From assembly GCA_964450845.1 (NCBI GenBank), contig CAYVGZ010000001.1, positions 15,060 to 79,059 of the forward strand: 64,000 nucleotides of DNA. The letters are read 5' to 3'. Every line of letters starts with the position of its first letter. Position 1 is the first letter of the stretch. The notes beneath the pieces were generated by a model, which was given only the letters and a program-made list of their open reading frames with translations, was not told the origin of the DNA and did no database searches. Made by a program: the position numbers and the translations under genes. The DNA comes from an uncultured Candidatus Bathyarchaeia archaeon. Its GTDB lineage: Archaea > Thermoproteota > Bathyarchaeia > Bathyarchaeales > Bathycorpusculaceae. This document shows, in pieces, positions 8,075-57,100 of the stretch.

Positions 8075-8086
8075 GACTATACTACA
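8075..8086 (+). promoter_or_regulatory. GACTATACTACA motif abutting ATG 8090 (possible promoter for a leaderless mRNA)
   Basis: TATACT at 8078-8083 lies 6 nt before the ATG. No SD precedes this ATG. TATACTACAG is duplicated at 8021-8030. Confidence 0.3.
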
Positions 8087-8089
8087 GCT

Positions 8090-37786: not shown

Positions 37787-40700
37787 TGGCTCAACATAAT
37801 CCTTATGATACTGGGTCAGATTACTACGACCCATATCAAAACTCTCAACAAGCACCTGGCCCAAACCTCGGAAATTTAGTACTAAATGCAGCTAAAACAA
37901 TGGTTGTCTTTGGTATTTTAAATACAGTTGGCAGAGGCGCCAGCAAGGTATTTAGCTCAAAAGCTGCGTCAATAGTAACTAGATATAGCAAGACTGCTGC
38001 AACTATACAAAAAGCAACTGGAGCTAATACTTTAGGAGGTTTGTTTGCTGGAACAAGCGCTGGAAAAGAAATTAATAAGATCTTTTCTGGAGCAACTAAA
38101 TCATTTAGTTCAGCACTTAAGTCTAAAGACGCATACGTAGCTAGTGTTGCTAGGACTCAAGGAGCAGGTGCTGCAAAGATAGCTGGCTTTAAGTCTTCGT
38201 TTAAAGATATGCGAACCTTTGCTGGAACTGTTGGCAGAGCATGGAAAAATACTGTTTGGGCTGGCGCTGGTGTTGCGTATGCGATAGATACCTTCGCTGG
38301 CGTTACTCGTGATTATGGAATTAAACCTAAAGCATGGTACGATGTTCCTGGTCAAATAGGAAACTTTGGCAAATGGCTTGCTATTAATTCTATATACTGT
38401 ATGGGATTCAAGGGTGCCACAAAATTTGCGCAAATGGCTGGGTCCAAAGGAATGCAGAGTGTTAGCAATGTATTTAAAGGTCCATTAGGCAAGGCATCTG
38501 CACAATTCCTTGAACGTGTATTAGCTGATGGTGCTCCAGCGGGATTACGAAGAACATCTTCTCAGGGTGGTACCATATTTAAGAAACAGATCTTTGATAA
38601 TATACCACAAGAACGAGTAAGATCTAATTTTAATCAGCACTTCGTTTCATCTGGCGTTCGTAACATGCTTGCATTTGGAAAAACAGTACCAGGGGCAATT
38701 AGAACTCTTAACGAAACCTTTCATCAATTTGGACAGAATTTTAAAGATGCTATATCTACTGACCAAGTTAAGATAGGCAGAGTTCTAAAAAGAACATTAT
38801 CAGACCCAGTTGCAGGTGCTATAAAACAGATAAAGAATCAGTTTCGTGCTAATCGAGTAATGAGAAAAGAACTGTCTCCTGTAGAACATGCTGGGTTAAA
38901 TGTTTTACAGTTTGCTGATGATTATGCTGCTAAACTTGGTGCAGGCTCTCAAGCTAATAAAACTAGGAAAGAGCAAGTAGAATTCTCAGTATTAGCTAGG
39001 AGAATAGCAAAGATAGGAAAAGCTCAGCAAGGTAGAAGAATCCTGGCAGATAAAATATTTCCTGAACTTGATAGAGTAACTAATAGAGATCTGGTAGATC
39101 AAGATTGGGTTACTAGGACTCAAGGAGTATATGCAAAACACTTTGGTGCAGATAGGGCTAAGGTATTTATGGACAGCATTCTTAACATGCATGCTGGTCT
39201 ACATATGTACAAACCAAAGGGCGGAAAGATAAAAGGCGCAGGCATTGATTTAAGCCTATTTGACCCAGTATATAGTCTTAAGAAAACAATGGGACGAGTT
39301 CTTAATAAGAATATTAAAGTACCATTTACTAATCAAGATATTAACTTCGGTGATATTCTTCAAGTTAATTTTTTGCTAAAAGATTCTCCTAGTTTTGACT
39401 TCTTTAAAGGCCCTCAAGACTTTGCTATTGGAGAAAATGCAAAGGCTCTTACATTTAGATTAGACCATGGAACAGTAAAATCTTCTAGTCAATTAGATAA
39501 AGAAGCGTGGTTTACCATAGGTATGAAGGGTGAACTTGCTGTTGTTGGGCCTGGCGGGATAAGTATAGTAAAAACTGGTAATAAACTAGGCTTGTCAGCC
39601 CCCAATAGCGGACTAAAGAAAGCAGAAAGGTCTAGAATTGAACGAGCTGTTCTTGGCGGAGAACAAGGAGAAACGAGACCATTAGCAGATACTGGTAATA
39701 GGTTTTTAGACTTTTTTATAAATAAAACTCAACTAAGCTGGCCAGGAATTGCTAGGCGTTTGGGAAGGAAAGTTGTTGGTGCAATTGAAGGTAAAAATGC
39801 AAAGTTTTTAGATGCAACTACTGGATTTGCAGGAGCATTTACAGATAACCCAGCGGAATGGTATAAGCGTGGAGATATTATACATGCTATTAAAGAAGCA
39901 ACTGGGCAGGATGTAGCAGCATTAATGCGAAATGGCGAGTTTCATTCAATGCTTGGAAAGCTTTCTGGAGCAACTGCTTTTGGAGATTCATTTGATGTAC
40001 TTTATAATGCTAGGAGTCTTAGAGATAAATTAACAGATATTGAAATGAAACTAGGTGATGAGTTTGGCCACTGGCTAAATAAGCGAGGCATAGCAGAAGA
40101 CGTAGCACTAATAAAAGCGGATCCAACTTATGCAGCAAATCACACAACTACAAAGAGACTTGGTCATAGAATGGAAATGAATCCTTATGATAAAGTTAGG
40201 CTAGCCCTTGTAGAGGATGCATTTGTAGATAGCTTTAATGTAGGAGACGGCATTGAACACCCTGTAATAAATGCTATTCCCGAGCTTCTTAAAAAAGGAG
40301 CAATCAATGAAAAGCAAGCTAAGTCTCTAGCTTTATTCGCCAAACTTTCTGCTTTTACCAATACAGGTATGTATGACAGAAAGAATGGTATGTCTCCAAC
40401 TGGAGACATACTTAATGCTGGTAGAAATATTCTTAGACGATCTCATCAGTTAAACTGGAACATACAGCAAGATATAATAAACTATGTTAAGACTAGTGAT
40501 TTTAGATCTGCGTCAGTTAGAGATATAGGCGATATCAAAGTGCACGACCCAAATGCCTTTGTATTCAAAAATAATACAGCATACGCTAGTATTCAAATGA
40601 ATCCAATGGGCTTTGCAAAGGATTGGGTAGAGACAGTATTTGATAATGTTAATAACATGTTACACGATACGATATTTCCATTTAGAAAGGATCCTACCAA

Positions 40701-43700
40701 GAATCTTTCTATCAAAGGTAATGCTAAGTATCTATTTGGAGGCCTAGCAAAGATAGCAGCTGGAGCCTTTGCTGTAAAGGCCCTAGATGCTGTTATAGCA
40801 GCTAATCCGTTGTTTGATGATACTGCACTAGATGCTGGTATAGGTGGCTTCCTAGCGGATAATGTGGCCCGTGCAAGGCTTGGACAATCAAGAGTATTTG
40901 ATGCATTAGGTTTTACTGGAATCGCTAAGCATATTAATGGACTAATGCCTGGATTTACTACTACAGCGCCAGGAGCAGTTATAGGTTCTGTTGTTTCTAG
41001 AACATTGGGTGGCGGTATGTTAGGCGGGTTTGCGTGGGGCGCAATTGGAAACAGAATATTAGCTCCTTATCTTCCTGACTTCACTAAAGACTATCAACAG
41101 CTAGAAGACGAGTACCAAGGAAAATCAGAAGTTCCAATTATGAAGGCACCAACGTGGCTTCTAGGCGCAACTCCATGGGAAGGATCTAAAGTAATTGGAT
41201 ATCAGCCTAACTGGTATGTAAGAATCAAGAGCCGCTGGAAGGAAACAGATACTCTATACGGTTCTACATTTAGAAAGCTTTTACATGAACCATTACCATT
41301 CTTAGGTATTTCTATTGGAGACTTTGTTGACCCATATTACATGGAAAGAAAGCATTATTTTTCTAGACCTTATCCAGAAACTGGCGAATGGGGAAAAGAA
41401 GTGCCTCTAGTTGGACCTTTAATTGCTGGAACTTTGGGCCGTATTTTCAAGCCAAAGAAAACAATGCATCAAGAGTTTTTAACAGGACCAAATGATTTAA
41501 GTGAAAATTCTACCTATCCGTTTGCTATACAACCTCCTACTGTACAAGAGCAGGAAGGTATGATGGCTCACGATAGAGGATTAAGGACTATGGGCGGACG
41601 CTCTGCCTTAATGGGCAGCTATGTATATGGTAGTGATTCTAAAATGTGGGCACACGCTGCTGGTGAAGATTTTTTAAACAATATTATGGACTTTACTGGT
41701 CTTCCTGGATTCCTAGCCAAGACCGCTCAAGGAAAACTTGTTAATAGACCGATAGTTATGCCTACCCTAGAAACTGCAGGTCGTATGGCATCAATGTCAA
41801 GGTCTTACTATGATATGAATCTAGGAGGTATGGGAGTATTTACAGAACCTGTTCGAAGATTAATTGATAAACCTGATTATAGAAGATATGGTTTAAATCC
41901 AATACCTAATATGATGCCAAACTGGTTACCAAATGAATTTTTATCAGGCGATCCTTACGCCAAGATAATTAGGGGAGAACTTAGGTTACCAGGTGCAGCG
42001 TACCAAGCTACTCATAAGGTTAAGAAAACAATGCCTGCTAGATCGTCTATGTTTGGTGCTCCAGAAGAACATATAATACAGTACTTCACTGGACTTCTTC
42101 CACCTCTACTAAAAGAAGAGTACGATATATTGTCTACTGGTACTACAATGCACGAGAAGATACAAGACTCATTAGCAGCAGAGGGATTATTGATTCAAGC
42201 AGAAGCAGTTGTGTATGATGTTAAAAATGATATATCTGGCCACGTTGATGCTATAGTTAGAGATGGGCAAGGCGGTAAAGGCAGAAGAGCGTTAGAAATT
42301 AAAAGTATAAACCAAGCTGCATTTGATAAACTAGAGGGGCCAAAAGACCAGCACATTGGACAGCTTAACTTTTATTTGAAAATGCTTAATCTTCAAAAAG
42401 GAACTCTTATGTATGTTAGCAGAGACAATCCTGCTAATGTCAAACTTTTTAATATTAACTATAGTAAGACTAGATATTTAAAAGACCTTAAAAAGCTTCA
42501 AAAGTCTAGACAGATCGCCGCCGACATGATGAAAGAAGGAGTAGATGATAAGTTTGGCTATGCATATTCTTGGCTAGATAGGCTTAATATCTTAGCTGAC
42601 GTAGGTCCTGCATCTCAAGAATTTAAAGAAGCAAAGTATTTTGTAGAACAACAAATTAAATACGGAATGTTGACTGACGCAGAAATAACTAAATATGATA
42701 AAGCGCTTAAACACAGACAAGCTAGGATTAGAAAGTATGAGCTCTATCCAAATAGATTTAAAGGTAAAATATTAAGTCCTGACCACGAAAGACAGATACA
42801 ATCTATTAATGAAGATATTAAAGCTGGTGTCGAATATACTCTTCCAGAAAGAGTAATAGGAGCAGCATGGGAAACTCTAACAAACTCTAATACGTTCCTT
42901 ACTAATAAATTATTAGCCTTTAAAGATCCTCTAGAACATTATAAAATGCTTCAACTTTATGGAAAAGAATATAAACCTTGGGATGAAGTTTATAACTCGT
43001 TTATTGATCCTGCACTTAAAGGTATGGCTGCACAAACTGGTCCTTTAGGTGGGGCCTATAAATTTGGAATGCCTGCTTATATGTTTTTAGGTAATATAGG
43101 TGCAGTTGCTGGAGGTCTTATTGGTGCTGGGTATGGCACAGTTCATGGATTATATAGACATTTTAGCGATTCTGCTTATATACCAGAACAAGTTAAAGAA
43201 CGAAGAGACATAGAGCAGTATTTTGACGAAGCTAAGTATGAACGTAATAGAAGAATGCTAGAGCTTTCTAGCGGCCTGGCTGCGAGAGAATATCAGGATG
43301 CTATGAATGCTACTCTTACTGCTTTTAATCAAAGTGGTGAGGACATAGCTAATCTATTTAGGGCTACTCCTTATATGGAAAAGCCGTATATTTCTGCATG
43401 GCTTGGTATTAAGAATAAAAAAGAAAGACAAGAAGTACTTAAATATATTCCTAAAGAGTTAAAGCAAGCACTAAAAAATCAATGGAACATGCTTGATCAA
43501 AAAGACGAAAATCAAGAATATGAAAAGTCGAGTAGTGAGTTTATAGCTGGCGGCGGATTAAAACATAAATTTGATAGGAGTATATTAGACCCTTCTGTTA
43601 GGCTTGAAGATATTAAACTAAAAACAGTTGAAGATGCTGGTTTTTCAGCCCATGATTTTGGACTTGGATGGAATGACCAGATGTATAGAATGCAAGACAA

Positions 43701-43944
43701 CTATAATAAGATTAGGTCAGCAGAAATAGCTCCAGCTCAAGAATACTCACCGCCAGATATTAATTCTGGTCAAGTAAGGCAGGCAATTATTAATATGATA
43801 CATCAGCGAAATTATAAGGGTTCTGCAGCTGTATATGTTAATGAAGGCGCAAACGATATTAATTTTTTAAACATTACAATTAGAAGAGATAGGTCCCTTA
43901 CTATAATTAATGCAATGAGAAACGCGTCACAGTACTATGGCTAA
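37786..43944 (+). CDS. Giant tape-measure-position protein (2052 aa) with embedded RecB/Cas4-like PD-(D/E)XK nuclease motifs
   Basis: Located after the chaperone-position ORFs. Has Gly/Ala-rich hydrophobic segments at aa ~30-230 and ~1000-1100. aa 1440-1560: STGTTMHEKIQ...ISGHVDAIVRD(D1488)...RRALEIKS(E1504,K1506)...HIGQLNFYL(Q1526,Y1530). Confidence 0.5.
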   Translation: MAQHNPYDTGSDYYDPYQNSQQAPGPNLGNLVLNAAKTMVVFGILNTVGRGASKVFSSKAASIVTRYSKTAATIQKATGANTLGGLFAGTSAGKEINKIFSGATKSFSSALKSKDAYVASVARTQGAGAAKIAGFKSSFKDMRTFAGTVGRAWKNTVWAGAGVAYAIDTFAGVTRDYGIKPKAWYDVPGQIGNFGKWLAINSIYCMGFKGATKFAQMAGSKGMQSVSNVFKGPLGKASAQFLERVLADGAPAGLRRTSSQGGTIFKKQIFDNIPQERVRSNFNQHFVSSGVRNMLAFGKTVPGAIRTLNETFHQFGQNFKDAISTDQVKIGRVLKRTLSDPVAGAIKQIKNQFRANRVMRKELSPVEHAGLNVLQFADDYAAKLGAGSQANKTRKEQVEFSVLARRIAKIGKAQQGRRILADKIFPELDRVTNRDLVDQDWVTRTQGVYAKHFGADRAKVFMDSILNMHAGLHMYKPKGGKIKGAGIDLSLFDPVYSLKKTMGRVLNKNIKVPFTNQDINFGDILQVNFLLKDSPSFDFFKGPQDFAIGENAKALTFRLDHGTVKSSSQLDKEAWFTIGMKGELAVVGPGGISIVKTGNKLGLSAPNSGLKKAERSRIERAVLGGEQGETRPLADTGNRFLDFFINKTQLSWPGIARRLGRKVVGAIEGKNAKFLDATTGFAGAFTDNPAEWYKRGDIIHAIKEATGQDVAALMRNGEFHSMLGKLSGATAFGDSFDVLYNARSLRDKLTDIEMKLGDEFGHWLNKRGIAEDVALIKADPTYAANHTTTKRLGHRMEMNPYDKVRLALVEDAFVDSFNVGDGIEHPVINAIPELLKKGAINEKQAKSLALFAKLSAFTNTGMYDRKNGMSPTGDILNAGRNILRRSHQLNWNIQQDIINYVKTSDFRSASVRDIGDIKVHDPNAFVFKNNTAYASIQMNPMGFAKDWVETVFDNVNNMLHDTIFPFRKDPTKNLSIKGNAKYLFGGLAKIAAGAFAVKALDAVIAANPLFDDTALDAGIGGFLADNVARARLGQSRVFDALGFTGIAKHINGLMPGFTTTAPGAVIGSVVSRTLGGGMLGGFAWGAIGNRILAPYLPDFTKDYQQLEDEYQGKSEVPIMKAPTWLLGATPWEGSKVIGYQPNWYVRIKSRWKETDTLYGSTFRKLLHEPLPFLGISIGDFVDPYYMERKHYFSRPYPETGEWGKEVPLVGPLIAGTLGRIFKPKKTMHQEFLTGPNDLSENSTYPFAIQPPTVQEQEGMMAHDRGLRTMGGRSALMGSYVYGSDSKMWAHAAGEDFLNNIMDFTGLPGFLAKTAQGKLVNRPIVMPTLETAGRMASMSRSYYDMNLGGMGVFTEPVRRLIDKPDYRRYGLNPIPNMMPNWLPNEFLSGDPYAKIIRGELRLPGAAYQATHKVKKTMPARSSMFGAPEEHIIQYFTGLLPPLLKEEYDILSTGTTMHEKIQDSLAAEGLLIQAEAVVYDVKNDISGHVDAIVRDGQGGKGRRALEIKSINQAAFDKLEGPKDQHIGQLNFYLKMLNLQKGTLMYVSRDNPANVKLFNINYSKTRYLKDLKKLQKSRQIAADMMKEGVDDKFGYAYSWLDRLNILADVGPASQEFKEAKYFVEQQIKYGMLTDAEITKYDKALKHRQARIRKYELYPNRFKGKILSPDHERQIQSINEDIKAGVEYTLPERVIGAAWETLTNSNTFLTNKLLAFKDPLEHYKMLQLYGKEYKPWDEVYNSFIDPALKGMAAQTGPLGGAYKFGMPAYMFLGNIGAVAGGLIGAGYGTVHGLYRHFSDSAYIPEQVKERRDIEQYFDEAKYERNRRMLELSSGLAAREYQDAMNATLTAFNQSGEDIANLFRATPYMEKPYISAWLGIKNKKERQEVLKYIPKELKQALKNQWNMLDQKDENQEYEKSSSEFIAGGGLKHKFDRSILDPSVRLEDIKLKTVEDAGFSAHDFGLGWNDQMYRMQDNYNKIRSAEIAPAQEYSPPDINSGQVRQAIINMIHQRNYKGSAAVYVNEGANDINFLNITIRRDRSLTIINAMRNASQYYG

Positions 43945-46900
43945 TTACAATCCTTTTAAACGACGAGACGACCAAGATAAAGAAGACAAGAATTGGTTTA
44001 TGAAAACCTCTATTAAAGTTGCTGCTGGCGCTGGTACTGCCTTCGGTATATATGGTCTATGGAAAATGAGAGGACCAGCTAAGAAAATTTTGGAAGAAGC
44101 AATGGATAAAGAAATGAAAAGAAAAATATCCATTGAACAGTCCAATAACATGGATAAGCACTCATTTGACATAGCTGAAAACTGGAATAAAGAACAGAGA
44201 GACCTTCTTAATGAGACTTGGGGAGAAGGAAAAAATCCATTCTTTGCTGATCCTAAAGAATCATGGGGAAAAGTAGATACGCCAGAATACACTAAGATAA
44301 ATATTTCTATTATTGAAACAGATATAATTTCTGACTTAGAACGCGAGGCATCATATCTATCGCCTAATGCAGAAATTAGAAAAATACAGCCAGGCGAGCA
44401 CTTTTCTGGAGCAGACTGGATAGCTATAAATAAAAAGAAAACAAAGATATTAAGAAAGGTTGTATCTCTTTCTGGATCAGAAGCAGAACAATTTGCTAGA
44501 CTTAGACAAGAGGCTATCGCTGAATACCTAGAAACCTATATGTTTACAGGCGTTGAACGAGAAGTTGCTGAACGTTTAGAAGAGATGTCAGAGCTTTCAA
44601 CATATTTTTCTAGTAAAGACTATCTTGATTCTGACCGTATTACTGATGGGTTTGGAAAAAAATCAGTTGATAGAATTACCACTATCCATAATGCATATAT
44701 GGAAGATAAGCAATATGCTGACATATATCAAAGAAAAATAAAACAACTATATAGAAGGTTTAAACTTTTTAGCCATAGAACTAGAACAGCTAAGATAGGA
44801 GAACCAGAACGAGTTCAATTTAATGGTGGAGGATATAGGAAGGCTCTTTATGGAAACATTCTAGGAGAAGTAATAGACCCAAAAAGCCTAGCGTCAAAAC
44901 CTCTATCTGCTCTTCCTTTGTTTGATAGCACTAATCCTGAAGTCAAGATGACCAAGGATATAACTTCTATGGGATCTAATAACTGGGGTCCAGAGAATAG
45001 ATTTAGCAAATTGCAGCAGACTAATTATACAGGTAGGATATTCAATTTGGATAAAACATTGAAAGGCTTACAAGACGAAGGAAATATTGCTGGATATTCT
45101 ATTACATTAATTGATTATGGTACTAAGTCGTTTCCAGATAAGAGGCTTAGAATTAGCTTGCTTCATACTGATGCCGCTATTGGTAAAAATAAAAGTTACC
45201 AAATAGAAATTCCGCTTGGAATTGATGGTAGAATACCTGGCGCGACACCTGGGCTACAGTATGCTGCAGAAAGATATCATATAGTTGGTAATGTGTATGG
45301 TAAGTCAGATGAGATGGTGCAGCTCATCAATACTACTGAACTTAATTTAATAGAAGTAGAAAAAGCTCTTAAAGGATCCTTAATGACAGGGTGGGATTCA
45401 TTTCAAGATAATCCTGATAAATTTGTTCGTCAAGTAAATAGAATGGTTCGTCAGATAATAGCTCAGAACGCTACAGCTAATGGCAGCAGATATGATTTAT
45501 ACAATGCTATGTCAGTAGACATACCCGCTATACGTGATCTTTTTGATTCATCAAGACCAAAGTTTGCTTCCGCTAGGAGAACAGCTGAAAGCTACATTTC
45601 TTCTGCAAGGGCAATGAAAAGAATAATTAATGCTAGGCATAATAAGAAAAAATCAGTAGTAATTAACTTAGACTTAGAAACATTAGATAATACTGGAGCA
45701 TCCCCTGGGGCCGCCATCCTTTCTAAAAACTCTCAGATTACTAAGTATGGTATAGTTGTACAAGATATGAATTCTGCTAAAATATTAGATCACTTTGAAG
45801 AATCTAACTGGTCTGGTTATAAGCATTTTAAAAATATCGACAATAGAAGGAAAGGCACAGGATTTAATGATAAATTAAGGAAATGGTTGAGAGACAGTGT
45901 ACTTCCCGAAGGTACACCAGTAGGTATGGAAGTTGAGGCATATGAAGAACTATTAAAAAATGAAGGTGCAGTTGATGTCGGAGACAGGACAGCTGTTGTA
46001 AAACGTATCACTGATAAAGTTAGAGCTATTAAAGCTGACCTTATGAAAAAAGGATATTCTGAAGACGAGATTTTCATAGCAACTAAGAACGGATTTATGT
46101 TCGACCTGCGCGCCATTAACATGGATGACCAAAGCTTTGCTAAGGAGTTTGAGGGAAACTTTATAGATATACAAGCTCTTCATGCTTTTAAAAATAATGC
46201 ACTTGGTGAAAATAATGCTCTAAACATTGAGCGCGTAATGCAACGCTTAATGGGGGAAATTGGCGAGCCAGGTGTTAACTATTCTATAAAAAATCAAGCG
46301 GGTATTACTAATATAATGAAGGCTCTTAAGAAAAAGGGAAGATCTATTCAAGGTGGAGGGACATCATTATTGAACTGGACTGATCCATTTTGGGAATATA
46401 AGGGCCGTGCTGGTATAGTAAAAGCTCACGGATCTCCTAGGGTAGACGCTGCGTTTGTTGCTGCACTATTAATGAAAGAAGTCGCTAGCTATACTGCAGA
46501 AAGCAGCTATCTAGATCACGCAGATTATATGGCTCGTCTTCTAAAAATGTCGTCTGGCCCAAGACGTCCAGAAGACCTTATAGAACTTTTTAGAATGATT
46601 AATGAGAAATATTTTGAAGGCTTTGGTGTAGCTAGTTTTAGAAGCTCTTCACAAAGAATGATATCAAATTTAGTTGCTAACTTTATTGAACCTGCTGAAA
46701 TGTCGGCGTTTGCTGATCCATATAATACAAGCGGAATTAGAAGAAGACATGCTATGCCCTTTAACTTGAGATTAAAGAAAAGTTATATTGATAAGTTTGG
46801 AGGTCCAGCAAATGCAGCTAATCTTCATAAGCAACATCTTGGCGAGTTTTTAATGACAACTAGTATAGAAGATGCAAACCGTGCACTGAACAACTATATA

Positions 46901-49900
46901 ATGAGAACAGACGATGCTGTAAATCATTTTTCAAATGCAGTATTAGCTGATACACTATATACGTTAGACTTAGAAAAGGAGCCAACCCTTGCTGTCTCTG
47001 AAGGCCTAGCTAAAAAATATGAGCAGGTAAAAATAGTTAACCTTCAAACAGATACATTAGTTGGAGACGAAAGAGTTAATGCTAAGATATTAGAATTTAA
47101 TAGACAAGTAGATAAGCGGGCTAAAGAGATCGCTGGCGGAAAATTTATTTCACCAGAAATAATAGAAGCAGCTGAGAAAGAAGTTGCAGGCAAGGGTGAC
47201 TGGGGAATAGACTTGTCTAGCGAAATTTTATCTGCAGGTAAGTATGGTGGAGAAGTTAAGACTAGAAGAAAGTCTCTTCATGGTAGAATAGTTTCGGCGT
47301 TACTAGAACCTGATAAAACATCACTTGGTAAGACTTCAGTTAGACGTCTATTAGTTAAGGTTGAAGAAACTATTTCTGGCAGAGATATATTCTTTGGGTC
47401 TCAAGCACAAACACCAGCAAGCCATGCTCTAATCGGAAATATTACTGTACTATCAGAAGGTATATCAAAAAGAATACTTGGTGCAGGTAAAGACTTTGTA
47501 ATGAGTAATACTCCAGAATTTTTAAAGAAGGGTCATATTGGGTCTGCTAAGGATGTAATGATTAGCGGACTACTTAAAAAATTATATACAGACCATGAAA
47601 CTACAACTGATCCTGCTACTAAGCGTAGTATTAAAAAGCTTATTGATAAAATTACAAGGGCCCTGGATGCCACTCCAGACATTGAAGGAAATAGAGTTAT
47701 ATTTAATAAGAAAGATATTGCTTATTCTAGTGACCTTAAAACTAGAGTACTAGGTAGTACTGATGTTAGATTAAAACAGATTATTCAATGGTATAAACAA
47801 GCTGGAATAGTCTGGAATAAAACTGAAATCGAAGACCTACATAAAAATGGATTTAGATTTGAAGCAACCTTTAAACCATATATGGATCATTTTAAAAAGA
47901 TGTCCAGACTAAGCGACGAACAGCTTAAAGCAACCTATGAGGGATGGGAAGGTCTTACTAAAGAAGGACTAAATGCAGCTAGGGATGATATTAAGGCATT
48001 TGAGAAAATGATGTATGATAATGTTCATAATACAGAAGGATCAGTAAAGCTATTTAGAGTTGTTCCTCAGATTGATCAAGGCTTCACCCTTGGTATTTTA
48101 GGTTATGGACCAGTAGCATTATATAGGCAAGATGCTAGGGGACTAACTAATAAAGACCTAACGTTTAGACAAGACTACTTCTTAGGGCTTAGACATACAT
48201 ATCATGGTCAAGATAAAACTACCATGGACTTTGTAGCTAGGCACACCTTTGCTTCAAGGTTTGATACATATAAGTCTGTCAGAAGAACATATACAAGATT
48301 TCTCGACCAACTCTTTTCTGAAAGACTAACTAAAGAACCTCTTAATATTAATGCTCTAGACTATTTACTAGATATTAAACAAAGGATTGCTTTACAATCT
48401 AAAGAAGCAGAAATGGCAAGTAGAAAAACTTGGAGCAATATGAGTGCTGGTGAACTGGCAGCTGCCGCTCGAGATAGAGATAATTTATTAGAAAAAAAAT
48501 TAGAGCTTACTGGAGCAGAAGCAGATGCTCTTAAACGTGAACGATTAGAGATAGCGGACGCTCTAAATGCTAAAGAAGGCGGATCTAGAATACTAGAAAA
48601 TGTTAAAGGTATTAAGAGATTTTATACAACTAGAGACGTTGCAAAGTTATCAGAGATAGCTGCAGAAAATAATGGAATAGTGGCTTTTAGTTTACCTGTT
48701 TCAAATAATGCATTAGAAATTGATCTTGATCAAGTTGTAGATAGGTTTCAAGGACAAATGCCAGGGAAACCAAAGTGGGACGCAAAGCAAATTACAAGTG
48801 CTAAAGATAGGCTTAAAAGTATACTGAGAAATAAATTAAAAAACTCAACTAAAGATTCTCCACTAAGATTTAATGAAGACGGAAAGTTAGTATTGGGTGC
48901 TCTTGTTATGGACTGGGATCCAATGGCAGTTAATCAATTTGATCGTTTAAGATCAGTAGACGCTTGGAGGTCTAACGGTTCAACTGAAATCAAAATGAAT
49001 GTGCTTAGGGCATTACACGAATGGCAGAAAGTAGTAAAAGAAGCTGGCGGTGGCATGGGAACAGATGTTTCTGCTGCCCAAGATAAGTTTATCAGAGCTT
49101 GGACTGTCTTCATGCTTACTGGAACTAATGCTGATAAAAACTCTCAATTTTGGAAATCAGGTCAATATGCTCCGCCTTCCCTGAAGTCTTATGCGGCAGA
49201 TATGACACAACTTCAACGATCAGTTATACAACTTGAGCAGTCTAGACCAGGTGCGTTTAAAAGGTATCGTCAACAATTTAAATTACTTAAAGAAGCTAGG
49301 ATGGATACTGTACTTATATCTGAAGAGGCATTTAAAAAAATGAGAATGGTAAATCAAAATGGAGAACTAGTAAGCGCTGCTAGAATGATAGAAGATCATT
49401 TTAAGGCACAAAATTCTACAATTGGAAAAGAAATTGCAGAAGGTAGAAGATTGCTTCCTGGAGGACTAATAGAAAGATTTCCTATTCCTCAAGCAGGAGA
49501 CAGAGGTATGCAGACGATTAATTATTTAGTAATGCCAAAAAAAGCATTAGAAGCTCTTGGTGCAGATGCAAATGCTATTTATGTTAATCCTGTTTATTGG
49601 GCTGGACAAGGTGGTGACTTTGATGGAGACATTATATTTGCTCAATTAAAAGAACTTGGTATTTTTTATAAATATAAAGAGCTTAGAGAAGCAAATGATA
49701 GAACTTTTCAAAGAATACTTGAAACTCCTGATATGGTCGACTTTATGAAGAATAATCAAATCGTATTAGATTCTAAAGGAAACGTTACCAAAGAAGTAAA
49801 AATAGGAAATATGAATTCTGTATTATACAGTAAAGGCGACAAGACTCTTATTCATACTTATGATTTAAAAGGAAATGCCAAACAAGTATGGGTTGGCTCA

Positions 49901-51004
49901 CATATGTTAGATGTTAGTGATAGAGTTGGACATGTATTAAATCTAATTGGTGGTATGGCATCATCTAGTCCAGCGTATGCTACTAGTGCTAGGGTTTCAC
50001 AAATAGCTGAGTCTCAAGTTAATACCTTGATATCTAAAGAACTTATACCTCTTACAACTAACCTTCTCAAAAAGAGAGTCAAGCAGATTTATGGAGACGC
50101 GCACATTAGAAAAAATCCATTACGTGTTCAAAACTTTGTTGGAAATACATTGCATGGCCTTGCTGGTATGGCTCAGTCTGTAATAGACCTGGCTAAGCAC
50201 CCAGAAGAAAGAGCTAAGTTATCTAAGGTTTTAAACTTTTTCACTACTGGTAAGGCTACACCTGAGGTTAAAGAATTATATTTAGAGCTTGAAAAAAAGG
50301 TAAAGGGTAGTGCCTTTGACGAAGAATTAGCTTCTGCTGACTTTGATATACTCTCTGGCCGAATAGAAGCAATTGAAACTGTATCTAAACGTAATCCTAC
50401 TTTCAAAATGCATGAAAATGCTAAAGATATGTACTACATGGGAAAACAGGGAGCTACGGTATTTGACTCACTAATGTTTGATAGCGATACCTACTTTGAT
50501 AATTTATTTAGTCCATCAAAGCCAGCGTCAGCAATGGACCAGTTAAATACTGCTTTTTCTAAACGACTTGGTAAACAAGTAGATATCTCTCCTGTGTTTA
50601 AAAAGGCAGGTAAATATGGCGCAATCGGTTCCGCTGTATTTATGGGACTAAGTTTATTTACTCCATTTGGAAATAGTAAGTCATTGAATCCTATAGATAT
50701 GTTTACAGATATTGGAGATATAGACGGTCAGCGATCTTCAATTTCAAGCCCATTAGAATTGTCTAGATCACAGCCACTAGATATGGTTAATGCCTCTTTC
50801 TCAAAAGAAGCATTCATACGTCAGAATAAAAGCAATTCAAAGAAAAGCCAAGGGGCTATTATGAACTCTATATTACAGAGCTCAATGCTATCTAGAGTAG
50901 ATGCTCCTTTTGAATTTCAAGTATCTTATAAAGGAACGTATTCGAACTATACTAAGAGCATCAATATGATTGGAACCAAAGAGCTTAAAAGGAAATATGA
51001 ATAA
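43937..51004 (+). CDS. Giant protein (2355 aa) with DnaQ-like DEDD exonuclease motifs and a two-barrel RNA polymerase catalytic DPBB signature (DFDGD)
   Basis: N-terminal TM helix. Exo motifs are VVINLDLET (D579/E581), KNGFMFDLRAI (D723) and AHGSPRVDAAF (H831/D837). Polymerase signature is ERFPIPQAGD (R1847-D1855) ... AIYVNPVYWAGQGGDFDGDIIFAQ (D1894/D1896/D1898). Confidence 0.6.
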   Translation: MANYNPFKRRDDQDKEDKNWFMKTSIKVAAGAGTAFGIYGLWKMRGPAKKILEEAMDKEMKRKISIEQSNNMDKHSFDIAENWNKEQRDLLNETWGEGKNPFFADPKESWGKVDTPEYTKINISIIETDIISDLEREASYLSPNAEIRKIQPGEHFSGADWIAINKKKTKILRKVVSLSGSEAEQFARLRQEAIAEYLETYMFTGVEREVAERLEEMSELSTYFSSKDYLDSDRITDGFGKKSVDRITTIHNAYMEDKQYADIYQRKIKQLYRRFKLFSHRTRTAKIGEPERVQFNGGGYRKALYGNILGEVIDPKSLASKPLSALPLFDSTNPEVKMTKDITSMGSNNWGPENRFSKLQQTNYTGRIFNLDKTLKGLQDEGNIAGYSITLIDYGTKSFPDKRLRISLLHTDAAIGKNKSYQIEIPLGIDGRIPGATPGLQYAAERYHIVGNVYGKSDEMVQLINTTELNLIEVEKALKGSLMTGWDSFQDNPDKFVRQVNRMVRQIIAQNATANGSRYDLYNAMSVDIPAIRDLFDSSRPKFASARRTAESYISSARAMKRIINARHNKKKSVVINLDLETLDNTGASPGAAILSKNSQITKYGIVVQDMNSAKILDHFEESNWSGYKHFKNIDNRRKGTGFNDKLRKWLRDSVLPEGTPVGMEVEAYEELLKNEGAVDVGDRTAVVKRITDKVRAIKADLMKKGYSEDEIFIATKNGFMFDLRAINMDDQSFAKEFEGNFIDIQALHAFKNNALGENNALNIERVMQRLMGEIGEPGVNYSIKNQAGITNIMKALKKKGRSIQGGGTSLLNWTDPFWEYKGRAGIVKAHGSPRVDAAFVAALLMKEVASYTAESSYLDHADYMARLLKMSSGPRRPEDLIELFRMINEKYFEGFGVASFRSSSQRMISNLVANFIEPAEMSAFADPYNTSGIRRRHAMPFNLRLKKSYIDKFGGPANAANLHKQHLGEFLMTTSIEDANRALNNYIMRTDDAVNHFSNAVLADTLYTLDLEKEPTLAVSEGLAKKYEQVKIVNLQTDTLVGDERVNAKILEFNRQVDKRAKEIAGGKFISPEIIEAAEKEVAGKGDWGIDLSSEILSAGKYGGEVKTRRKSLHGRIVSALLEPDKTSLGKTSVRRLLVKVEETISGRDIFFGSQAQTPASHALIGNITVLSEGISKRILGAGKDFVMSNTPEFLKKGHIGSAKDVMISGLLKKLYTDHETTTDPATKRSIKKLIDKITRALDATPDIEGNRVIFNKKDIAYSSDLKTRVLGSTDVRLKQIIQWYKQAGIVWNKTEIEDLHKNGFRFEATFKPYMDHFKKMSRLSDEQLKATYEGWEGLTKEGLNAARDDIKAFEKMMYDNVHNTEGSVKLFRVVPQIDQGFTLGILGYGPVALYRQDARGLTNKDLTFRQDYFLGLRHTYHGQDKTTMDFVARHTFASRFDTYKSVRRTYTRFLDQLFSERLTKEPLNINALDYLLDIKQRIALQSKEAEMASRKTWSNMSAGELAAAARDRDNLLEKKLELTGAEADALKRERLEIADALNAKEGGSRILENVKGIKRFYTTRDVAKLSEIAAENNGIVAFSLPVSNNALEIDLDQVVDRFQGQMPGKPKWDAKQITSAKDRLKSILRNKLKNSTKDSPLRFNEDGKLVLGALVMDWDPMAVNQFDRLRSVDAWRSNGSTEIKMNVLRALHEWQKVVKEAGGGMGTDVSAAQDKFIRAWTVFMLTGTNADKNSQFWKSGQYAPPSLKSYAADMTQLQRSVIQLEQSRPGAFKRYRQQFKLLKEARMDTVLISEEAFKKMRMVNQNGELVSAARMIEDHFKAQNSTIGKEIAEGRRLLPGGLIERFPIPQAGDRGMQTINYLVMPKKALEALGADANAIYVNPVYWAGQGGDFDGDIIFAQLKELGIFYKYKELREANDRTFQRILETPDMVDFMKNNQIVLDSKGNVTKEVKIGNMNSVLYSKGDKTLIHTYDLKGNAKQVWVGSHMLDVSDRVGHVLNLIGGMASSSPAYATSARVSQIAESQVNTLISKELIPLTTNLLKKRVKQIYGDAHIRKNPLRVQNFVGNTLHGLAGMAQSVIDLAKHPEERAKLSKVLNFFTTGKATPEVKELYLELEKKVKGSAFDEELASADFDILSGRIEAIETVSKRNPTFKMHENAKDMYYMGKQGATVFDSLMFDSDTYFDNLFSPSKPASAMDQLNTAFSKRLGKQVDISPVFKKAGKYGAIGSAVFMGLSLFTPFGNSKSLNPIDMFTDIGDIDGQRSSISSPLELSRSQPLDMVNASFSKEAFIRQNKSNSKKSQGAIMNSILQSSMLSRVDAPFEFQVSYKGTYSNYTKSINMIGTKELKRKYE
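50944..50955 (+). promoter_or_regulatory. GAACTATACTAA motif copy inside the 3' end of the 2355-aa gene
   Basis: The 15-mer GAACTATACTAAGAG is identical to 19436-19450. TATACT ends 51 nt before ATG 51004. Confidence 0.3.
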
Positions 51005-51187: not shown

Positions 51188-54100
51188 ATGGCAGGAGACG
51201 TAAAAATCAAATTTCTTAGCACTGAAAACCTACCAGCATTTGGCGAGATACTTCATAGAGCGTTTCTGAAGGAAGCTAAAGAGCTTTACGATGTTAGTAA
51301 AGACTATGAAAAGCCTGATGTATGGAATAAGGTAAAAGCTGCCATAAGTACAGTTTATGAAAAAGCAGGCTTAGCTAAATACGAGGATATTAAAGAAGGT
51401 TATACAGAGAGACTTAGGATAGGAGATATTGTCTTACTTGAAGACGACAAACGCGCCTATGCTGTTACTGGTATCAGCAATGATAATGTAAGGACATATC
51501 CTAGGCCTATTGCTAGGGATGTTGATTCACTTAAACCTTCAAAAATTGGTGGAAGAAGTGGAAGAGTTAAAAGACCAAACCTTAGCCAAATTAAAAGTGA
51601 GTCCTATGAGAATATAGTTTTAGAAAATTTGCCAGATGAAATTATTAATAGAGAAGCTAAGAATACTGCTACATTTAAAGCTATTTCTCTATCTGATGAT
51701 AGTACCCATTTGCAAATTGGAGATCTTATTCTTGGTGTAGACCCAATACAACTGTCATTTACAACTCAAAATGGCTACCAGTATTTCCCAACTTTACGCA
51801 CTAGTGGAAATCCAAAGCTTCCAACAATGCAGCAAATTAAGAATATAACTATAGTATTAATGTTTCCAAATGTAGACGCAATTAACTATCAGTTAATTCC
51901 TTTATATGCAATGTTCAGGCGCACCCCATTTGTTAATATTAAGAATAGAGACCTGCTTAGATTCTTTAAAGATGTAGCTAGTCCTACTGGTTATATTCCA
52001 GTTGCGTTAGAAAGTATTCAAATACAGTCTATTGACGGGTTCCCTAATTCTTTACAAGCAACTATATCCGTTCTTCCATTTGACCCAGGGCCAACATCTA
52101 ATGGAAGTCTTCAAGCATTAAAGAGCTTTGATGATGTTTTTATCCAGCAAGAAAGCTTGAGCAAAGATATAATTCTTAATAAGATGATAGAAACTGCTGA
52201 TTTGAAGATGCAAGACATATCATCTTTACCTACTACTTTTGATTCTTTAACTCAAATTGTTAGTGAAGCCAGCGAAAATTTCAAAGAAAGTTTTCCATTT
52301 AGAGCATTTTACCAATCCCTAATAGCAGGAAGAAAGTCTGTTTTAAATGAAAACGGAGAAGAGGCTAAGCTCTATAACTCAGATGACTCATCTGCTTTGC
52401 TTGCCAGCGATATCTCATTTTTGTCTCCAAGAAATAGAGAAAACTTCTTGCATGAATACAATATAGAAGCAAATAGAAAGCAAGTAGGATTTAAATATAC
52501 ATATGTAACTCTATTTGATAAAGATAAAAAGGAAACACCAAATCTTGCTGATATTGGAAAATACTTTTCAGATGAACGAATAGATAGTAGAGATAAACGC
52601 TTAGACTCATTCAGAAAGCTATTTGATGCAATAGGAAGCTACGAGGGCCTAGCTAATACTATGTTCTCTGCCTTTCATAATATGTCTGACGCATTTAGAC
52701 CTATTGAGTATGAATTTAGTAAGATGGACAATTTGGTTAATCATGTCCTAGCACTACATGGAGTTGATCCAAAGATGGTTGTTAAAGGTACTCCTAGCAC
52801 TGGCGCTGGATTTTTAACTAATCTTGGAAAACTTATGTCCTTTCTTACTAGAAGTACAATGCAACAAGTTGGAGTTGCTCCTATAGCTTCAGCTATAGAA
52901 GCTATTAATAAAAACATAGTAGCTGATGGTAAAATAGATTATAATAAAGCTGCGGCAGACCAATGGGCTCTTCTGAAAAAAGCTGGCCTGCTATATAATG
53001 AGGCTAATACTGGGGAACTAAGCAAGTATGGTATTCACACATTAGATGGAGCATTCCAAGCACTGTGGGCATGGATAGAAGAGGATAAAAGTGGTAAGCG
53101 TAAACAAGATTTTATTGTTGTCTTACAAGACATAATGAATGCGCTTAAAGGAGATCTTTCTACTTCTATAATGGTTGTAAACGCGGGTCAGTCTGTTGAT
53201 GAGTCAGAATATAAGATTGTTAGATTGCCAGTTAAAACTGTTGAATTCTATATAGATAACAAGACTGATGTTATAACGTCATGGTCTCTTGTATATTCTA
53301 ATAAGTTTGTTCCAATTAATCTCCTAGCGTATAAGTATCCATTTTATCAACATCTAGGATCAGACGATCCAACGTTATCTCTTTCTATTACATCTGTTCC
53401 TAATGGCGAAAGATTTGATCTAAAAGAACAGCTTGCTCTACTTTCTGACAGAATGTATGACTCTGTTAAGTTAGTTAATTATACGTCTCCTGACTTATAT
53501 ACTTGGATGGACCCTCGAGTAGAACTCGACTATGCTCCAGGACATATATTTCATTGCTTTGGAATTCATAAGGTTGTTTTAAACTCTTCTAATTCTACTA
53601 ATATACAAGGCCAACCAGATGCTTGGAACACAACAATTAATCTTACCCAAGCAAATTTTAGTCTTGAACAGTATCATAGCATTAGCTCGGCTAATAATTT
53701 AACTGAAATTGATGCTATAATTTCACAGCTAATTCCAAGACTTCGCATTGATGAAAGTGGAAACCTTACAGTCCTCGCGCTAAAGCATCCTACAGAAACA
53801 TTAACTTTAGATGAAGTAGTTTATCTATCATTCCTATTTTCTACTCCTGGTCAAAGATACGTTGAGCATGTTGACCAAATGATTAAAACATATGGAAAAT
53901 TAGAAAATTCAAAGAAAGTAACTGGTAAAGACTTAATTAACTTGCTTGCTCCTAAAATGAAATTGTATTATAGCATGGATCCAAATCAAATAGACAAAGG
54001 AGCAACTAAAAAACTTGAAGCTCTTTGTCTTGAAAATAAGAAGTTTAAAGGACTAATTACTGCTATAGCTAAAGAATACGAGCAGCTATTGGAAGTGCAA

Positions 54101-57100
54101 GCAGATGCTTTTATTAATATTATAGATAGAGAAAAATCTATATTTGAGCAGGTTGTCAAAGGAATTAGAGACTCGAAGAATGTTATAGCTGGCGCAGCTA
54201 TTGGAGCAGCTGGCCTAGATTATACTTTGCTATTTTTACTATCACTTGGTCCAGCTGGACCTTGGGCAGCGGCCGTAGGTGTAGGACTCATAGCTACAGG
54301 TGCACTTTTATATACTGGAGTAAATATAGGGGCTGAGCTTGCTAGGAACAAAGTAAAGAAAGACCTCTCAGCACTAGTTGCTAATATTATTAATGTATAT
54401 AAAAAAGAAATTTTGTTAGAGCTATCTAGAGCTATAGTAAAAGACCCTCCTATTAGGAGACGACTTCTTAGTAAAGAGTTCATATCTCTATTAAGACCAC
54501 CTACAGTTGATGGAGACCAAGTAGATATAGAAAAATATATATCACAAGTACAATATCAAAAGAGACTTAACTGTTATCCTGACTTTGACATGCCTGTAAT
54601 TTGGGAAAGCGCAGATAGGATATATAAAGCAAGTCCTGACTTTTATCTTTATAATTTTTCTAATCCTCAAACTTATATTAATACATATGTTAAAGAGAGC
54701 ACAGATAGACTAATTAAAATTGGTAAAATGGGAATGCAACTTGCCTTAGTTGAGCATAAAAACTTGTATGAGTCTCTAGAACAGCTGACAACCCAAGTTA
54801 GTAGTCAAGGTGATAAAAATATTCAGAATGTTTTATCTGGAGTATATACAGAAATTGGGTATGCAAACTCAGCAGATTCGTTTTTAAACCTTGCTCAGAT
54901 GTATAGATTGGTTGCTTTCAAAGATGAAAATATTAAGACAAGCGATGTATCAACAGAACAAGATACGACCTTTTTAACTGAACAAAGAAAAGAAGAGCTT
55001 ATAAAAGAACACGAATCAGTTAATTCTGAATTAAAAAAGACAAATCCTAAACTTTTTGAATATGAACAAACAATACTTAATTATATGCTTAGCATGGATA
55101 TTGCACCAAAGATTCAAGACACGAATATAATTAAGTATAACATTGTCTGGACTGCCAGAATGAAAACGTTGATAGAACTTATAGCACTCGGATATCAGAT
55201 ACAGACATACTTTGCTTCTGAAACTGCGTTAAAAGGAAGCATATCTGTTGCTGATAGTTCAGCTAAAAAAGACTTGAACAAATATGTAGAGCAAGAGAAA
55301 AAGAAGCAGCAATTGTCTGGACAAATTTTAGAAAAACTAGTTAGCTTAAAGGCTGATGTATGGGCAATTCTAGAAAACTGGAAAGATGCTACTTCTAAAA
55401 CAGTCAACTCTACTACTGATACTAGGTTTAAAACTTTAAAAAAGAAATATAATAAAGGCTTCTTTGCTGAGACTATTAATGATAGTAGCAAAGAAGAGTC
55501 TTCAGATTTTCTACAGGTGCCTTCTATTAGAAATTTAGAAGCTGAAGTATATAATAAAATAGGATTCTTTATTAGGCTTAATACAGTTATAGAGCTAGCA
55601 AATGGCGGGAACAGTGTGCTTAAACCATATAGTGGTAATGTTCCTAATCTATCTCTGGACTCCCTTCCTGAACTTGGTTTTATTGACGCATTTAACGTAA
55701 GACAGACTGAATCAGTATTTAGAGCACTTGAGATTGAGCGTCAACTATTTGACTCTATGCAGAAAAATAAGAACGTTACACTTAAGTATTTTCCTACATT
55801 TAAAATATTTTTTATAGAAGAAGAGAGTAAGAGATATCAAGTGTTGGATGATTACTATGCATATAATGCTGTGCAGTCTATAGAGATCTCAAAAAATAAG
55901 CATTCATCTAGCGTAGTTGCAGTTATACGACTAAACAATTTGAATGGTACAATTACAGATAAGTTGTCATTTCATCGCGAAAGATCTGACTTTATGCAAG
56001 CGAATGATTTCTTAAATGAAGATGACGCCTTTTTTGGAACGTTAGATGTTAAGCCTGGTACTAAAGTTCAAATCAAACTTGGATATGCTGCTAATGACAG
56101 CGATCTTCCTACGGTGTTTACTGGAAGAATTCTAGAAATGAACGCGGGACCAGTTACAGAAATCATATGTCAAAGCTATGGTGCCCAGCTAAATCATAAA
56201 GTACTTCAAACTAATGTTGGCTTCTTCTCATCAGAGAAAGAATATGGAGACATAGCATCGGCTTTGTTAGATATTATTCCAGGTCTTGAAAATCTAGGTA
56301 AAAAAGAAATTGCATCATTTGGACTTCTTAGTGGTTTTACTGGACGAGATCTTAAAAAAATTAGAACTAGTCTTTTCGACAATTTCTTATTAAGCACAGT
56401 GCTAGGACGTCTGACTGCTAATCTTCGCGGATTTGATAATCCTAGGGATGAAAATATTTACTTGCCATTTAATTTATCTATATACCCTAAGTGGAAACCT
56501 CGCTTTGACTGGGTAGTATATAACCAGAGCGTATGGGACTCTGTTAAAGAATTATGTTTATATTGTAATAATACTGAAGCTGTGATTAAACAGTACAATA
56601 ATGATCCTTTATCTCAACGAGGAGAACAAAGGGAAACTATCGTAATTGGAAATAAATCTGGATATTATAAGTGGACAGATTCTTTAGCTTTAAGCTCGAT
56701 TGATACAGATGATATAGATAATAGAATAGCAAAGTTTAAAGACATCTTATCTAAGGATGGTATTAAAAATCCTCAATTTACTACAGCTGGTAAACAATAT
56801 AAGCTTAAAGGAATTCAAACTCTTAGAGAAGATAAATATAGATTGTTATCTCCTCTTAAATTTGTTTACGATAACGTTAAGACAACTTTTCTTCCTAAAG
56901 GAATAAATAAACCAATAGGGTCTGAAGTCAAGTATGCTAATCTTAAGCCTGAATTTCTTCCATTGTGGGAATGGTTAAGCGATCCGTTAAATTCTAATAT
57001 TATAAAGAAACGACTATTAAATGAGCTCGATCTTACTATCAAAACTGTTTCAAACTTTGCAAGCGAAGCTTTTAAGCGTCAGTTTAAATCATTTGCTGAC

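Follow-up and report, generated by a model that had tools for sequence, protein, structure and literature searches.

A giant tail-module protein with a candidate two-barrel RNA polymerase core defines a sequence-orphan family in contractile-tailed phages

The 64,000-nt stretch of contig CAYVGZ010000001.1 analyzed here (the window) encodes, in a phage tail module, a protein of 2,355 aa that is referred to below as the target (open reading frame (ORF) 43937-51004, + strand). The explanation that we favor, with a probability of roughly 0.6, is that aa ~1100-2100 of the target form the core of a divergent, Mg2+-dependent RNA polymerase (RNAP) of the two-barrel type, which is likely delivered with the virion. 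Its family is best read as a new family of virion RNA polymerases in myoviruses, analogous to gp96 of phage P23-45 and gp66 of phi14:2, a phage of the crAss-like group, and fused to motifs of the DEDDh exonuclease type.

The putative catalytic segment and its conservation

The initial annotation of this DNA, made from the letters alone, had placed the RxP...DFDGD signature of the metal-binding double-psi beta-barrel (DPBB) of two-barrel RNA polymerases at 49454-49651. The ORF list and translation confirmed this: the segment reads LPGGLIERFPIPQAGDRGMQTINYLVMPKKALEALGADANAIYVNPVYWAGQGGDFDGDIIFAQLK, lies inside the target ORF and contains R1847-x-P1849 ... D1894-F-D-G-D1898. The numbers assigned to the Asp triad (D1894, D1896 and D1898; codons 49616-49630) were right, and so was the quoted peptide except for a trivial offset, as the coordinates begin at aa 1840 (L) and the quoted string three residues earlier (RRL). 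The barrel to which the signature belongs was delimited as follows.

49442..49651, + strand: beta'-like double-psi beta-barrel (DPBB-A), aa 1836-1905, LPGG-x3-R1847-x-P1849-x2-QAG ... D1894-F-D1896-G-D1898, based on invariance, hhalign, AlphaFold (AF2) and Foldseek

By our own estimate, a protein of 2,355 aa with ~6% Asp would contain a lone DxDxD ~0.5 times at random. The motif alone therefore proves nothing, and conservation and fold are the test that is needed.

A word-indexed search returned six relatives that were 31-100% identical to the target, and in these close homologs LPGG, R1847, P1849, QAG and D-x-DGD were all invariant. An exhaustive hidden Markov model (HMM) profile search, with aa 1150-2250 as the query against 1.84 billion representative proteins, yielded 56 relatives, nearly all of them 2,230-2,490 aa long and matching across the whole queried region. 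Forty-four full-length members, 15-68% identical to the window protein, were aligned with a mean column identity of 24%; repeating the first search method with this alignment gave the same 6 proteins. Out of about 2,355 columns 13 were invariant in the 44 members: Y364, six in a region with exonuclease motifs (D579, E581, D723, D744, H831 and D837) and six in the putative polymerase core (P1849, D1894, D1896, D1898, Q2080 and K2087). Position 1847 is K or R in 93% of the members, G1843 is conserved in 95% and G1854 and G1875 in about 90%, and the family-wide pattern is LPGG-x3-R-x-P-x2-Q-x-G ... G-x-D-x-N ... D-x-D-[GSAKRNVT]-D. The constancy of the Asp triad and of the RxP proline among homologs is thereby borne out. 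Two finer details of the proposed signature did not hold: the D of its 'GD' (D1855) is not conserved among homologs, and the P said to end the hydrophobic strand is conserved in the closest clade only.

The target belongs to a sequence-orphan family that is not recognized by standard annotation tools. In 50,697 phage genomes, tblastn found no match to the whole target ORF, nor to the 86-aa motif region at E<=10, and literature searches found no such protein family described for myoviruses. An exact contig look-up with the window protein gave no record, and an exact 42-mer was not present in the GTDB genome set.

Similarity to RNA polymerases in profile and predicted fold

The family profile was compared by hhalign with the single sequences of Escherichia coli rpoB and rpoC and of P23-45 gp96 and gp64. 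On E. coli beta' the best local alignment covered residues 442-472 (P 0.004-0.01), on gp96 residues 738-794 (P 0.0006-0.002, the best value among the polymerases tested) and on gp64 residues 285-335 (P 0.003-0.006), in each case the catalytic segment. The family sequence ERFPIPQAG was paired with NRAPTLHRLG of beta', FRNPVMGHG of gp96 and NRRPDLPTG of gp64, and NAIYVNPVYWAGQGGDFDGD was likewise paired with polymerase segments. The target family and beta' have the pattern xRxPxxxxxG ... AIxxxPxxxxxxxxDFDGD in common, and the spacing from RxP to the Asp residues is 35-47 residues in all four proteins. Two-barrel families have little in common beyond the DxDxD region (PMC10770324), and a match that is confined to the catalytic segment agrees with this. 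At the sequence level the alignments are consistent evidence for kinship with polymerases, short of proof.

The structure of the putative core was predicted with AF2 from the window fragment aa 1085-2100 aligned with 43 full-length relatives. The model had a mean predicted local distance difference test score (pLDDT) of 79.2 and a predicted TM-score (pTM) of 0.75; the barrel region reached a pLDDT of 81-93, and the strands of DPBB-A were at model residues 756-763, 774-782, 797-799 and 815-820. A model built from six sequences had a pLDDT of 47 and was unusable. Foldseek of the 44-sequence model against PDB gave 228 matches at E<=1e-3, and the best 50 of these were all the largest subunit of an RNA polymerase. 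The matches listed comprised mycobacterial, Streptomyces and E. coli beta', yeast and human Pol I A190 and Pol II Rpb1, and the best of them had an E of 1.1e-6 and a probability of 1.0 over about 800 aligned columns. In BFVD the model matched a 'minor tail protein' of an uncultured siphovirus, several unnamed entries, RNAP subunits of giant viruses, a myovirus 'DNA-directed RNA polymerase' and, weakly, P23-45 gp64 (A7XX94, E 0.4). The matches were uniformly RNAPs and never unrelated helical proteins, which argues against a compositional artefact.

Invariance, the hhalign segment, the AF2 model and Foldseek together support the proposal that this predicted domain is the metal-binding DPBB of a two-barrel RNA polymerase. 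The structural neighbors were partly those that had been anticipated: beta' and Rpb1 largest subunits ranked best, while QDE-1, YonO and gp66 were absent among the matches listed (the gp66 structure 6VR4 was not among the best 50 of 228). As to the two barrels that AlphaFold was expected to reveal, DPBB-A was predicted with confidence and the second was not firmly located.

Other elements of the putative polymerase core

Single-chain two-barrel enzymes are built in the order N-terminal domain, duplex-binding helix, DPBB-B, connector, DPBB-A, bridge helix and trigger loop (PMC10770324). Around DPBB-A the following candidates were assigned.

47264..47566, + strand: candidate beta-like barrel (DPBB-B), aa ~1110-1210, tentative, based on conserved basic residues
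47567..49441, + strand: helical connector or clamp-like region, aa 1211-1835, based on AF2 secondary structure, pLDDT and Foldseek
49985..50095, + strand: bridge-helix candidate, aa 2017-2053 (SK-x-LIP-x-TTN-x2-KKR), based on AF2 and conservation
50135..50206, + strand: trigger-loop candidate, aa 2067-2090 (F-x-G-x3-HG-x2-G-x2-Q2080-x6-K2087-H2088), based on conservation and position

The candidate DPBB-B contains G1116, G-[STG]-K-[AS]-V at position 1163, K1198, G1202 and K1205. Position 1163 is K in 33/44 members, R in 4 and H in 5 including this phage, K1198 is present in 42/44 and K1205 in 39/44; G1116 and G1202 accompany them, and upstream of the Asp triad no basic residues other than those at these three positions are conserved. 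AF2 placed strands here at an only moderate pLDDT. The top hhalign alignment of aa 1085-1260 fell on beta 1048-1083, with a non-significant P of 0.42 against full-length E. coli beta and an equally non-significant 0.21 against a beta profile, which was shallow as the search with the beta C-terminus gave only beta fragments at least 78% identical. In this alignment the family G-x-K-[SA]-V was paired with beta GNK1073GV, and a forced global alignment disagreed. The distance from the candidate lysine to the triad is 731 aa versus 729 in a head-to-tail fusion of E. coli beta and beta' (our own arithmetic) and about 265 aa in QDE-1 and gp66; if the lysine pairing is right, it would fit the preference of Foldseek for beta'.

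The connector is mostly helical, and the Foldseek alignments to beta' have a span of about 800 columns; apart from an aromatic residue at W1293 and F1799 the connector has no residues conserved in at least 80% of the members. A 37-residue helix follows DPBB-A in the AF2 model (model residues 933-969, pLDDT 80-86), and T2041, N2042 and R2047 within this bridge-helix candidate are 93-95% conserved. In QDE-1, the bridge-helix residues N1087 and R1091 bind the template (PMC9508822). The trigger-loop candidate comes after the bridge-helix candidate, as in gp66, QDE-1 and beta'; its Q2080 and K2087 are invariant, H2088 is conserved in 91% and G2069 in 93%. Going by position and conservation, these two segments may act as bridge helix and trigger loop.

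Exonuclease motifs and the two ends of the protein

Three further parts of the target, two of them at its ends, stand out by conservation or by similarity to a neighboring gene product.

45644..46456, + strand: DEDDh-type 3'-5' exonuclease motifs, aa ~570-840, based on invariant residues in 44 sequences
43937..44077, + strand: N-terminal module, aa 1-47, based on hhalign of N-termini
50603..51001, + strand: conserved C-terminal tail, aa 2223-2355, based on dense conservation in 44 sequences

The exonuclease motifs, already noticed in the initial annotation, are present and invariant in the 44 members: D579-x-E581 (VVINLDLETLD), N718-G-x-x-F-D723, D744 and H831-x5-D837, whose acidic residues and His match the Exo I/II/III pattern of DEDDh enzymes. 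Pfam gave nothing significant for this region, one family member matching RNase_H_2 at E 0.037, and against E. coli DnaQ hhalign aligned Exo I alone (P 0.26). By this pattern the region may act as an exonuclease.

The N-terminal module consists of MA-x-Y-N-P-[FY], a polar stretch and a G/A-rich hydrophobic helix followed by GP. It had been read as an N-terminal transmembrane (TM) helix; the G/A-rich hydrophobic stretch is there, but it is weak and lies below the threshold of 1.6 in a 19-residue Kyte-Doolittle scan, which no segment of the target ORF passed. The module is common to the target and to the product of the gene preceding it (giant 1; window 37786-37960; hhalign probability 75%, P 2.6e-5), and the giant protein encoded downstream (giant 3) does not have it. 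It is possibly a common signal for virion incorporation, ejection or membrane interaction. At the other end, conservation within the family is highest over the last ~130 residues, where a hydrophobic, G/A-rich GKYGAIG...FTPFGNSKSLNPxDMF is followed by VNASFSK and YSNYT, and this tail is possibly an anchoring or assembly end. A C-terminal module common to the three giants was looked for by hhalign and not found.

Gene neighborhood in the tail module

The following genes of the window place the target within the morphogenesis region of the phage.

15119-16936: terminase
19704-21749: portal
24411-25736: major capsid protein
29426-32176: tail sheath
36848-37159 and 37220-37786: two small chaperone-position genes
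37786-43944, + strand: giant 1, 2,052 aa, 8-nt overlap with the target
43937-51004, + strand: target, 2,355 aa
51003-51185, + strand: 60-aa ORF (MSTIEANITIDIPDG...), between the target and giant 3
51188-58627, + strand: giant 3, 2,479 aa
58638-59420: 260-aa gene
59420-59950: gp25-like baseplate gene
59959-61215: baseplate wedge (Baseplate_J in homolog loci)

The tail sheath and the baseplate wedge uphold the earlier description of the tail as contractile. Ten loci were compared, namely the window, two contigs from an exact look-up and seven IMG/VR contigs (17-230 kb). In all 10 of these divergent loci the two small genes are followed by giant 1, the target, the 60-aa ORF and giant 3, and then by the ~260-aa gene, the gp25-like gene and Baseplate_J. 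The 60-aa ORF keeps its size and position in the homologous loci, and the three giants have similar lengths that are tightly conserved across the family.

Giant 1 has a Cas4/PD-(D/E)XK nuclease region (aa 1447-1568, PHROG) within its very highly conserved C-terminal half and is apparently a nuclease carried in the tail module. It is homologous to gp145 of Bacillus phage 0305phi8-36 (hhalign probability 100%, E 1.8e-59), which is annotated as identified in virions by mass spectrometry (MS). Comparisons by hhalign of giant 3 with gp146 of 0305phi8-36, and of the target with gp145 and gp146, were negative. The nearest terminases are those of 0305phi8-36 and Moorella phage MTATph1, at 29-30% identity. 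Giant 3 contains strongly hydrophobic stretches, three of them side by side at aa 999-1047 and a fourth at aa 2331-2349, and its PHROG matches comprise an 'endolysin' family and families of unknown function. It is the most tape-measure-like of the three giants and probably the real tape measure; the hydrophobic cluster and the 'endolysin' region make the earlier label of the downstream neighbor as a baseplate hub doubtful.

Farther upstream, at window 280-5250, a 1,656-aa ORF has terminase-, helicase-loader- and endonuclease-like PHROG matches within the ~440 residues at its start and matches ribonucleotide reductase at aa 760-1654, a combination that points to a fusion or to the insertion of an intein or homing endonuclease.

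A conserved DNA element at the end of the target gene and in the late region

A short DNA element recurs in the window, including a copy inside the target gene.

50946..50954, + strand: ACTATACTA, inside the 3' end of the target gene
59056-59064, + strand: ACTATACTA, second window site
7545, 8075, 19437, 21602, 22893 and 25839 (starts), + strand: RACTATACTA

The form (G/A)ACTATACTA occurs 8 times in the window, always on the + strand, versus 0.73 expected. The copy at 50946 is 58 nt before the last base of the target stop codon, and the 60-aa ORF lies 49 nt downstream of it. Across 10 divergent loci the 9-mer was found 22 times on the + strand and 0 times on the - strand, and it takes syntenic positions in the window and in loci L002, L003 and L006-L012: one site is 43-70 nt before the end of the target gene, a second is in the ~260-aa gene, about 343-376 nt before its end, and further sites are at gene ends or in intergenic DNA upstream of tail genes.

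At coding sites the element is always read x-AC|TAT|ACT|A. The idea that the element merely encodes a conserved N-Y-T peptide was considered and rejected. AAC/GAC make up 17-18% of the Asn/Asp codons in these genes (per-site chance about 0.08), and these rare codons recur with TAT and ACT at all syntenic sites; the 22:0 strand bias, the intergenic copies and the other reading phases also contradict the idea. The peptide around the element in the ~260-aa gene is not conserved, and, with the rare codons, this implies that the DNA itself is under selection. The element explains part of the 'invariant' YSNYT peptide at the C-terminus of the target. From its sequence and distribution, ACTATACTA is a good candidate for a family-wide promoter, read by phage-encoded machinery common to the phage family. 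As the sites precede late genes, the target is no more than a possible reader.

Another gene, of the HNH/homing-endonuclease type (8090-8608), has its start 6 nt behind a GACTATACTA element (window 8075-8608), and looks like a mobile gene that landed directly behind a promoter-like site.

Proposed mechanism and alternative explanations

In the proposed layout of the target, the N-terminal DEDDh motifs would be followed by a probable beta-like barrel ~700 residues upstream of the beta'-like barrel, which would carry R1847-x-P and D1894/D1896/D1898 and lead into a bridge-helix-like helix and a trigger-loop-like segment. As the product of one of three co-linear giant genes between tail-chaperone-like and baseplate genes, the protein would become part of the virion and probably sit inside or at the tail lumen, beside the tape-measure-like giant 3. 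Sheath contraction would expel it into the host, where, without need of the host polymerase, it may transcribe the first phage genes. This model of packaging and ejection is drawn from the analogy with P23-45 gp96 and crAss gp66, and it is supported indirectly by the conserved position of the target in the tail module and by the N-terminal module that it has in common with giant 1, the homolog of the MS-verified gp145.

Several observations weigh against a virion-delivered two-barrel polymerase. At the sequence level there was no significant similarity to any known polymerase: Pfam and PHROGs gave nothing relevant for the target ORF, its sub-domains or 21 diverse family members, and searches of PDB sequences with phmmer and hmmsearch, using the single protein, a 6-sequence profile and the 44-sequence profile, gave no real match. 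The hhalign probabilities to polymerases were low (4-30%; 15-30% for gp96 and gp64) and concerned a segment of ~50 residues. The TM-scores of the Foldseek matches were also low (about 0.18, rmsd about 28 Å), with part of the model superposing; by the model, either the domains are differently arranged or the core alone superposes. The beta-like barrel at aa ~1110-1210 is a tentative candidate, not demonstrated, and its candidate lysine is His in this very phage. Comparisons by hhalign of the bridge-helix and trigger-loop candidates with beta', gp96 and gp64 gave no support for either. No homolog of the target was seen in a characterized virion, and a globular polymerase of ~1,000 residues would need to pass through the tail tube.

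A joint reading that goes further on three counts seems doubtful. Here the target would derive from the cellular multisubunit enzymes and resemble a beta-beta' fusion, joined to a DEDDh exonuclease and not a cousin of the crAss, YonO and QDE-1 single-chain polymerases; the three giants, matched in length, would form a composite 'tape-measure cargo' in the lumen of the contractile tail, made up of a PD-(D/E)XK nuclease carrier, an exonuclease-plus-RNAP carrier and a TM/lytic tape measure; and ACTATACTA would be a promoter read by the target polymerase or a partner.

It is unlikely that the target is a genuine but 'non-virion' RNA polymerase, made after infection for middle or late genes, with its location in the tail module incidental. 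The ACTATACTA elements precede late (structural) genes and could be promoters of such an enzyme, and the target ORF has no strong TM segment. Set against this, the position from the chaperone-like to the baseplate genes is strictly conserved in 10 divergent genomes, the N-terminal module is also that of giant 1, a homolog of the proven virion protein gp145, and the length is as tightly constrained (2,230-2,490 aa) as that of the tape-measure-like neighbor. A late-expressed enzyme cannot start infection, but it could be packaged for the next cycle.

We consider it quite improbable that the two-barrel fold belongs to a primase or polymerase resembling archaeal PolD, which would synthesize DNA with the DEDDh exonuclease as its proofreader. 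The Asn of NADFDGD in beta' helps to select ribonucleotides, and it is not conserved in the target family (GG, GW, KA etc. are found); yet gp96 and gp64, which are RNAPs, are also without it. The invariant DEDDh motifs are on the same chain and N-terminal to the core, in the classic order of exonuclease and then polymerase, and two-barrel DNA polymerases exist (PolD, PMC10770324). However, the best 50 of 228 Foldseek matches are all RNA polymerases and none is PolD, and the phage two-barrel enzymes characterized to date are all RNAPs. Conservation in the family extends to the RxP arginine, and we take it to correspond to beta' R425, which contacts the 2'-OH of the NTP. In the explanation that we favor, RNA rather than DNA would be the product.

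A very low probability is given to the target being a beta'-like subunit only, with a beta-like partner in a neighboring giant or elsewhere in the ~197-kb genome, in the manner of phiKZ. The best Foldseek matches are indeed beta'/Rpb1 chains over about 800 columns and not single-chain polymerases, and no significant beta-like barrel was found in the target ORF. But no beta-like signal (P>0.15; 64 kb examined) emerged when the family profiles of the two neighboring giants were compared by hhalign with beta, beta', gp96 and gp64, DPBB-B is poorly conserved in single-chain enzymes (PMC10770324), and the target ORF itself has a conserved K/G-rich segment with its top alignment on the beta lysine motif. 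That the beta'-like domain is a structural or repurposed relic without nucleotidyl-transferase activity in a tape-measure or ejection protein is scarcely credible. In its favor, giant tail-lumen proteins often carry assorted domains, the beta-like barrel is unproven and the sequence similarity to polymerases is limited to one short segment. Inactive relics, however, lose their catalytic residues, and this family has kept the Asp triad, the RxP proline, Q2080 and K2087 without exception across sequences that are otherwise only 15-30% identical.

If the target is a virion-delivered two-barrel polymerase, as we favor, it would extend to contractile-tailed phages a principle described in crAss-like podoviruses and in a single group of Thermus siphoviruses. 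It would represent a third, sequence-orphan family of about 56 clusters that pipelines annotate as 'hypothetical', distinct in architecture by the exonuclease motifs before the polymerase, a separate gene beside the tape measure and a closest structural affinity to cellular beta'. It would also be a concrete candidate for the start of transcription in these large myoviruses (contigs of roughly 110-230 kb), with ACTATACTA as a ready candidate promoter, and it would bear on RNA polymerase evolution and on the passage of large folded enzymes through tail tubes.

Comparison with known systems

In P23-45, gp96 is a virion RNA polymerase fused to the tape measure (PMC10770324). Like the target, it is a giant protein of the tail module with an RxP...DFDGD barrel whose sequence is unrecognizable beyond the motif, and the exit through the tail and transcription of the first genes that have been proposed for it are paralleled in what we propose for the target. 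P23-45 is a siphovirus, and the polymerase of gp96 is the N-terminal 1,050-1,200 residues of a 5,002-aa tape measure, whereas the target belongs to a myovirus, has an ORF separate from the tape-measure-like giant 3 and carries its polymerase C-terminally, behind the exonuclease motifs. No family relationship between the two was detected. Among the Foldseek matches listed gp96 was absent, and its paralog gp64 was the weak match noted above. The target was rejected as a gp96-type vRNAP (virion RNAP) fused to a tape measure, given its separate ORF and an hhalign similarity at the level of the motif only.

The gp66 protein is encoded beside other giant virion genes. Like the target it is a virion polypeptide, proposed in our case, of ~2,200 aa with its core amid unknown domains (PDB 6VR4; bioRxiv 10.1101/2020.03.07.982082), and its order of DPBB, bridge helix and trigger loop is the one proposed for the target. 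It differs in coming from a podovirus, in its motif (DFDID versus DFDGD) and in an inter-barrel connector of about 140 residues, versus an inter-barrel gap of about 690-730 residues in the target if the candidate DPBB-B is right. Membership of the crAss-like gp66 family was rejected on the empty PDB sequence searches, which should include 6VR4, the DFDGD motif and the myovirus context.

The cellular largest subunits (beta', Rpb1 and A190) are the best structural matches of the target. Unlike them, the putative core is part of a single chain in a phage tail-module protein of 2,355 aa, for which no separate beta partner was found, and no motif of the beta' Cys4 zinc site was seen in the target translation. 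YonO of SPbeta and QDE-1 have both barrels on one chain and a DbDGD-type motif; YonO, by description, is set apart from the target in being small, intracellular and encoded outside any tail module.

Functionally, the analogy is with gp50 of coliphage N4, a giant ejection protein (PMC13434306), and with the phiKZ-type vRNAP, both polymerases that travel in the particle and, once ejected, transcribe early genes. They reach this end by other means: N4 gp50 has a T7-like right-hand fold, and the phiKZ enzyme is multisubunit and packaged in the head.

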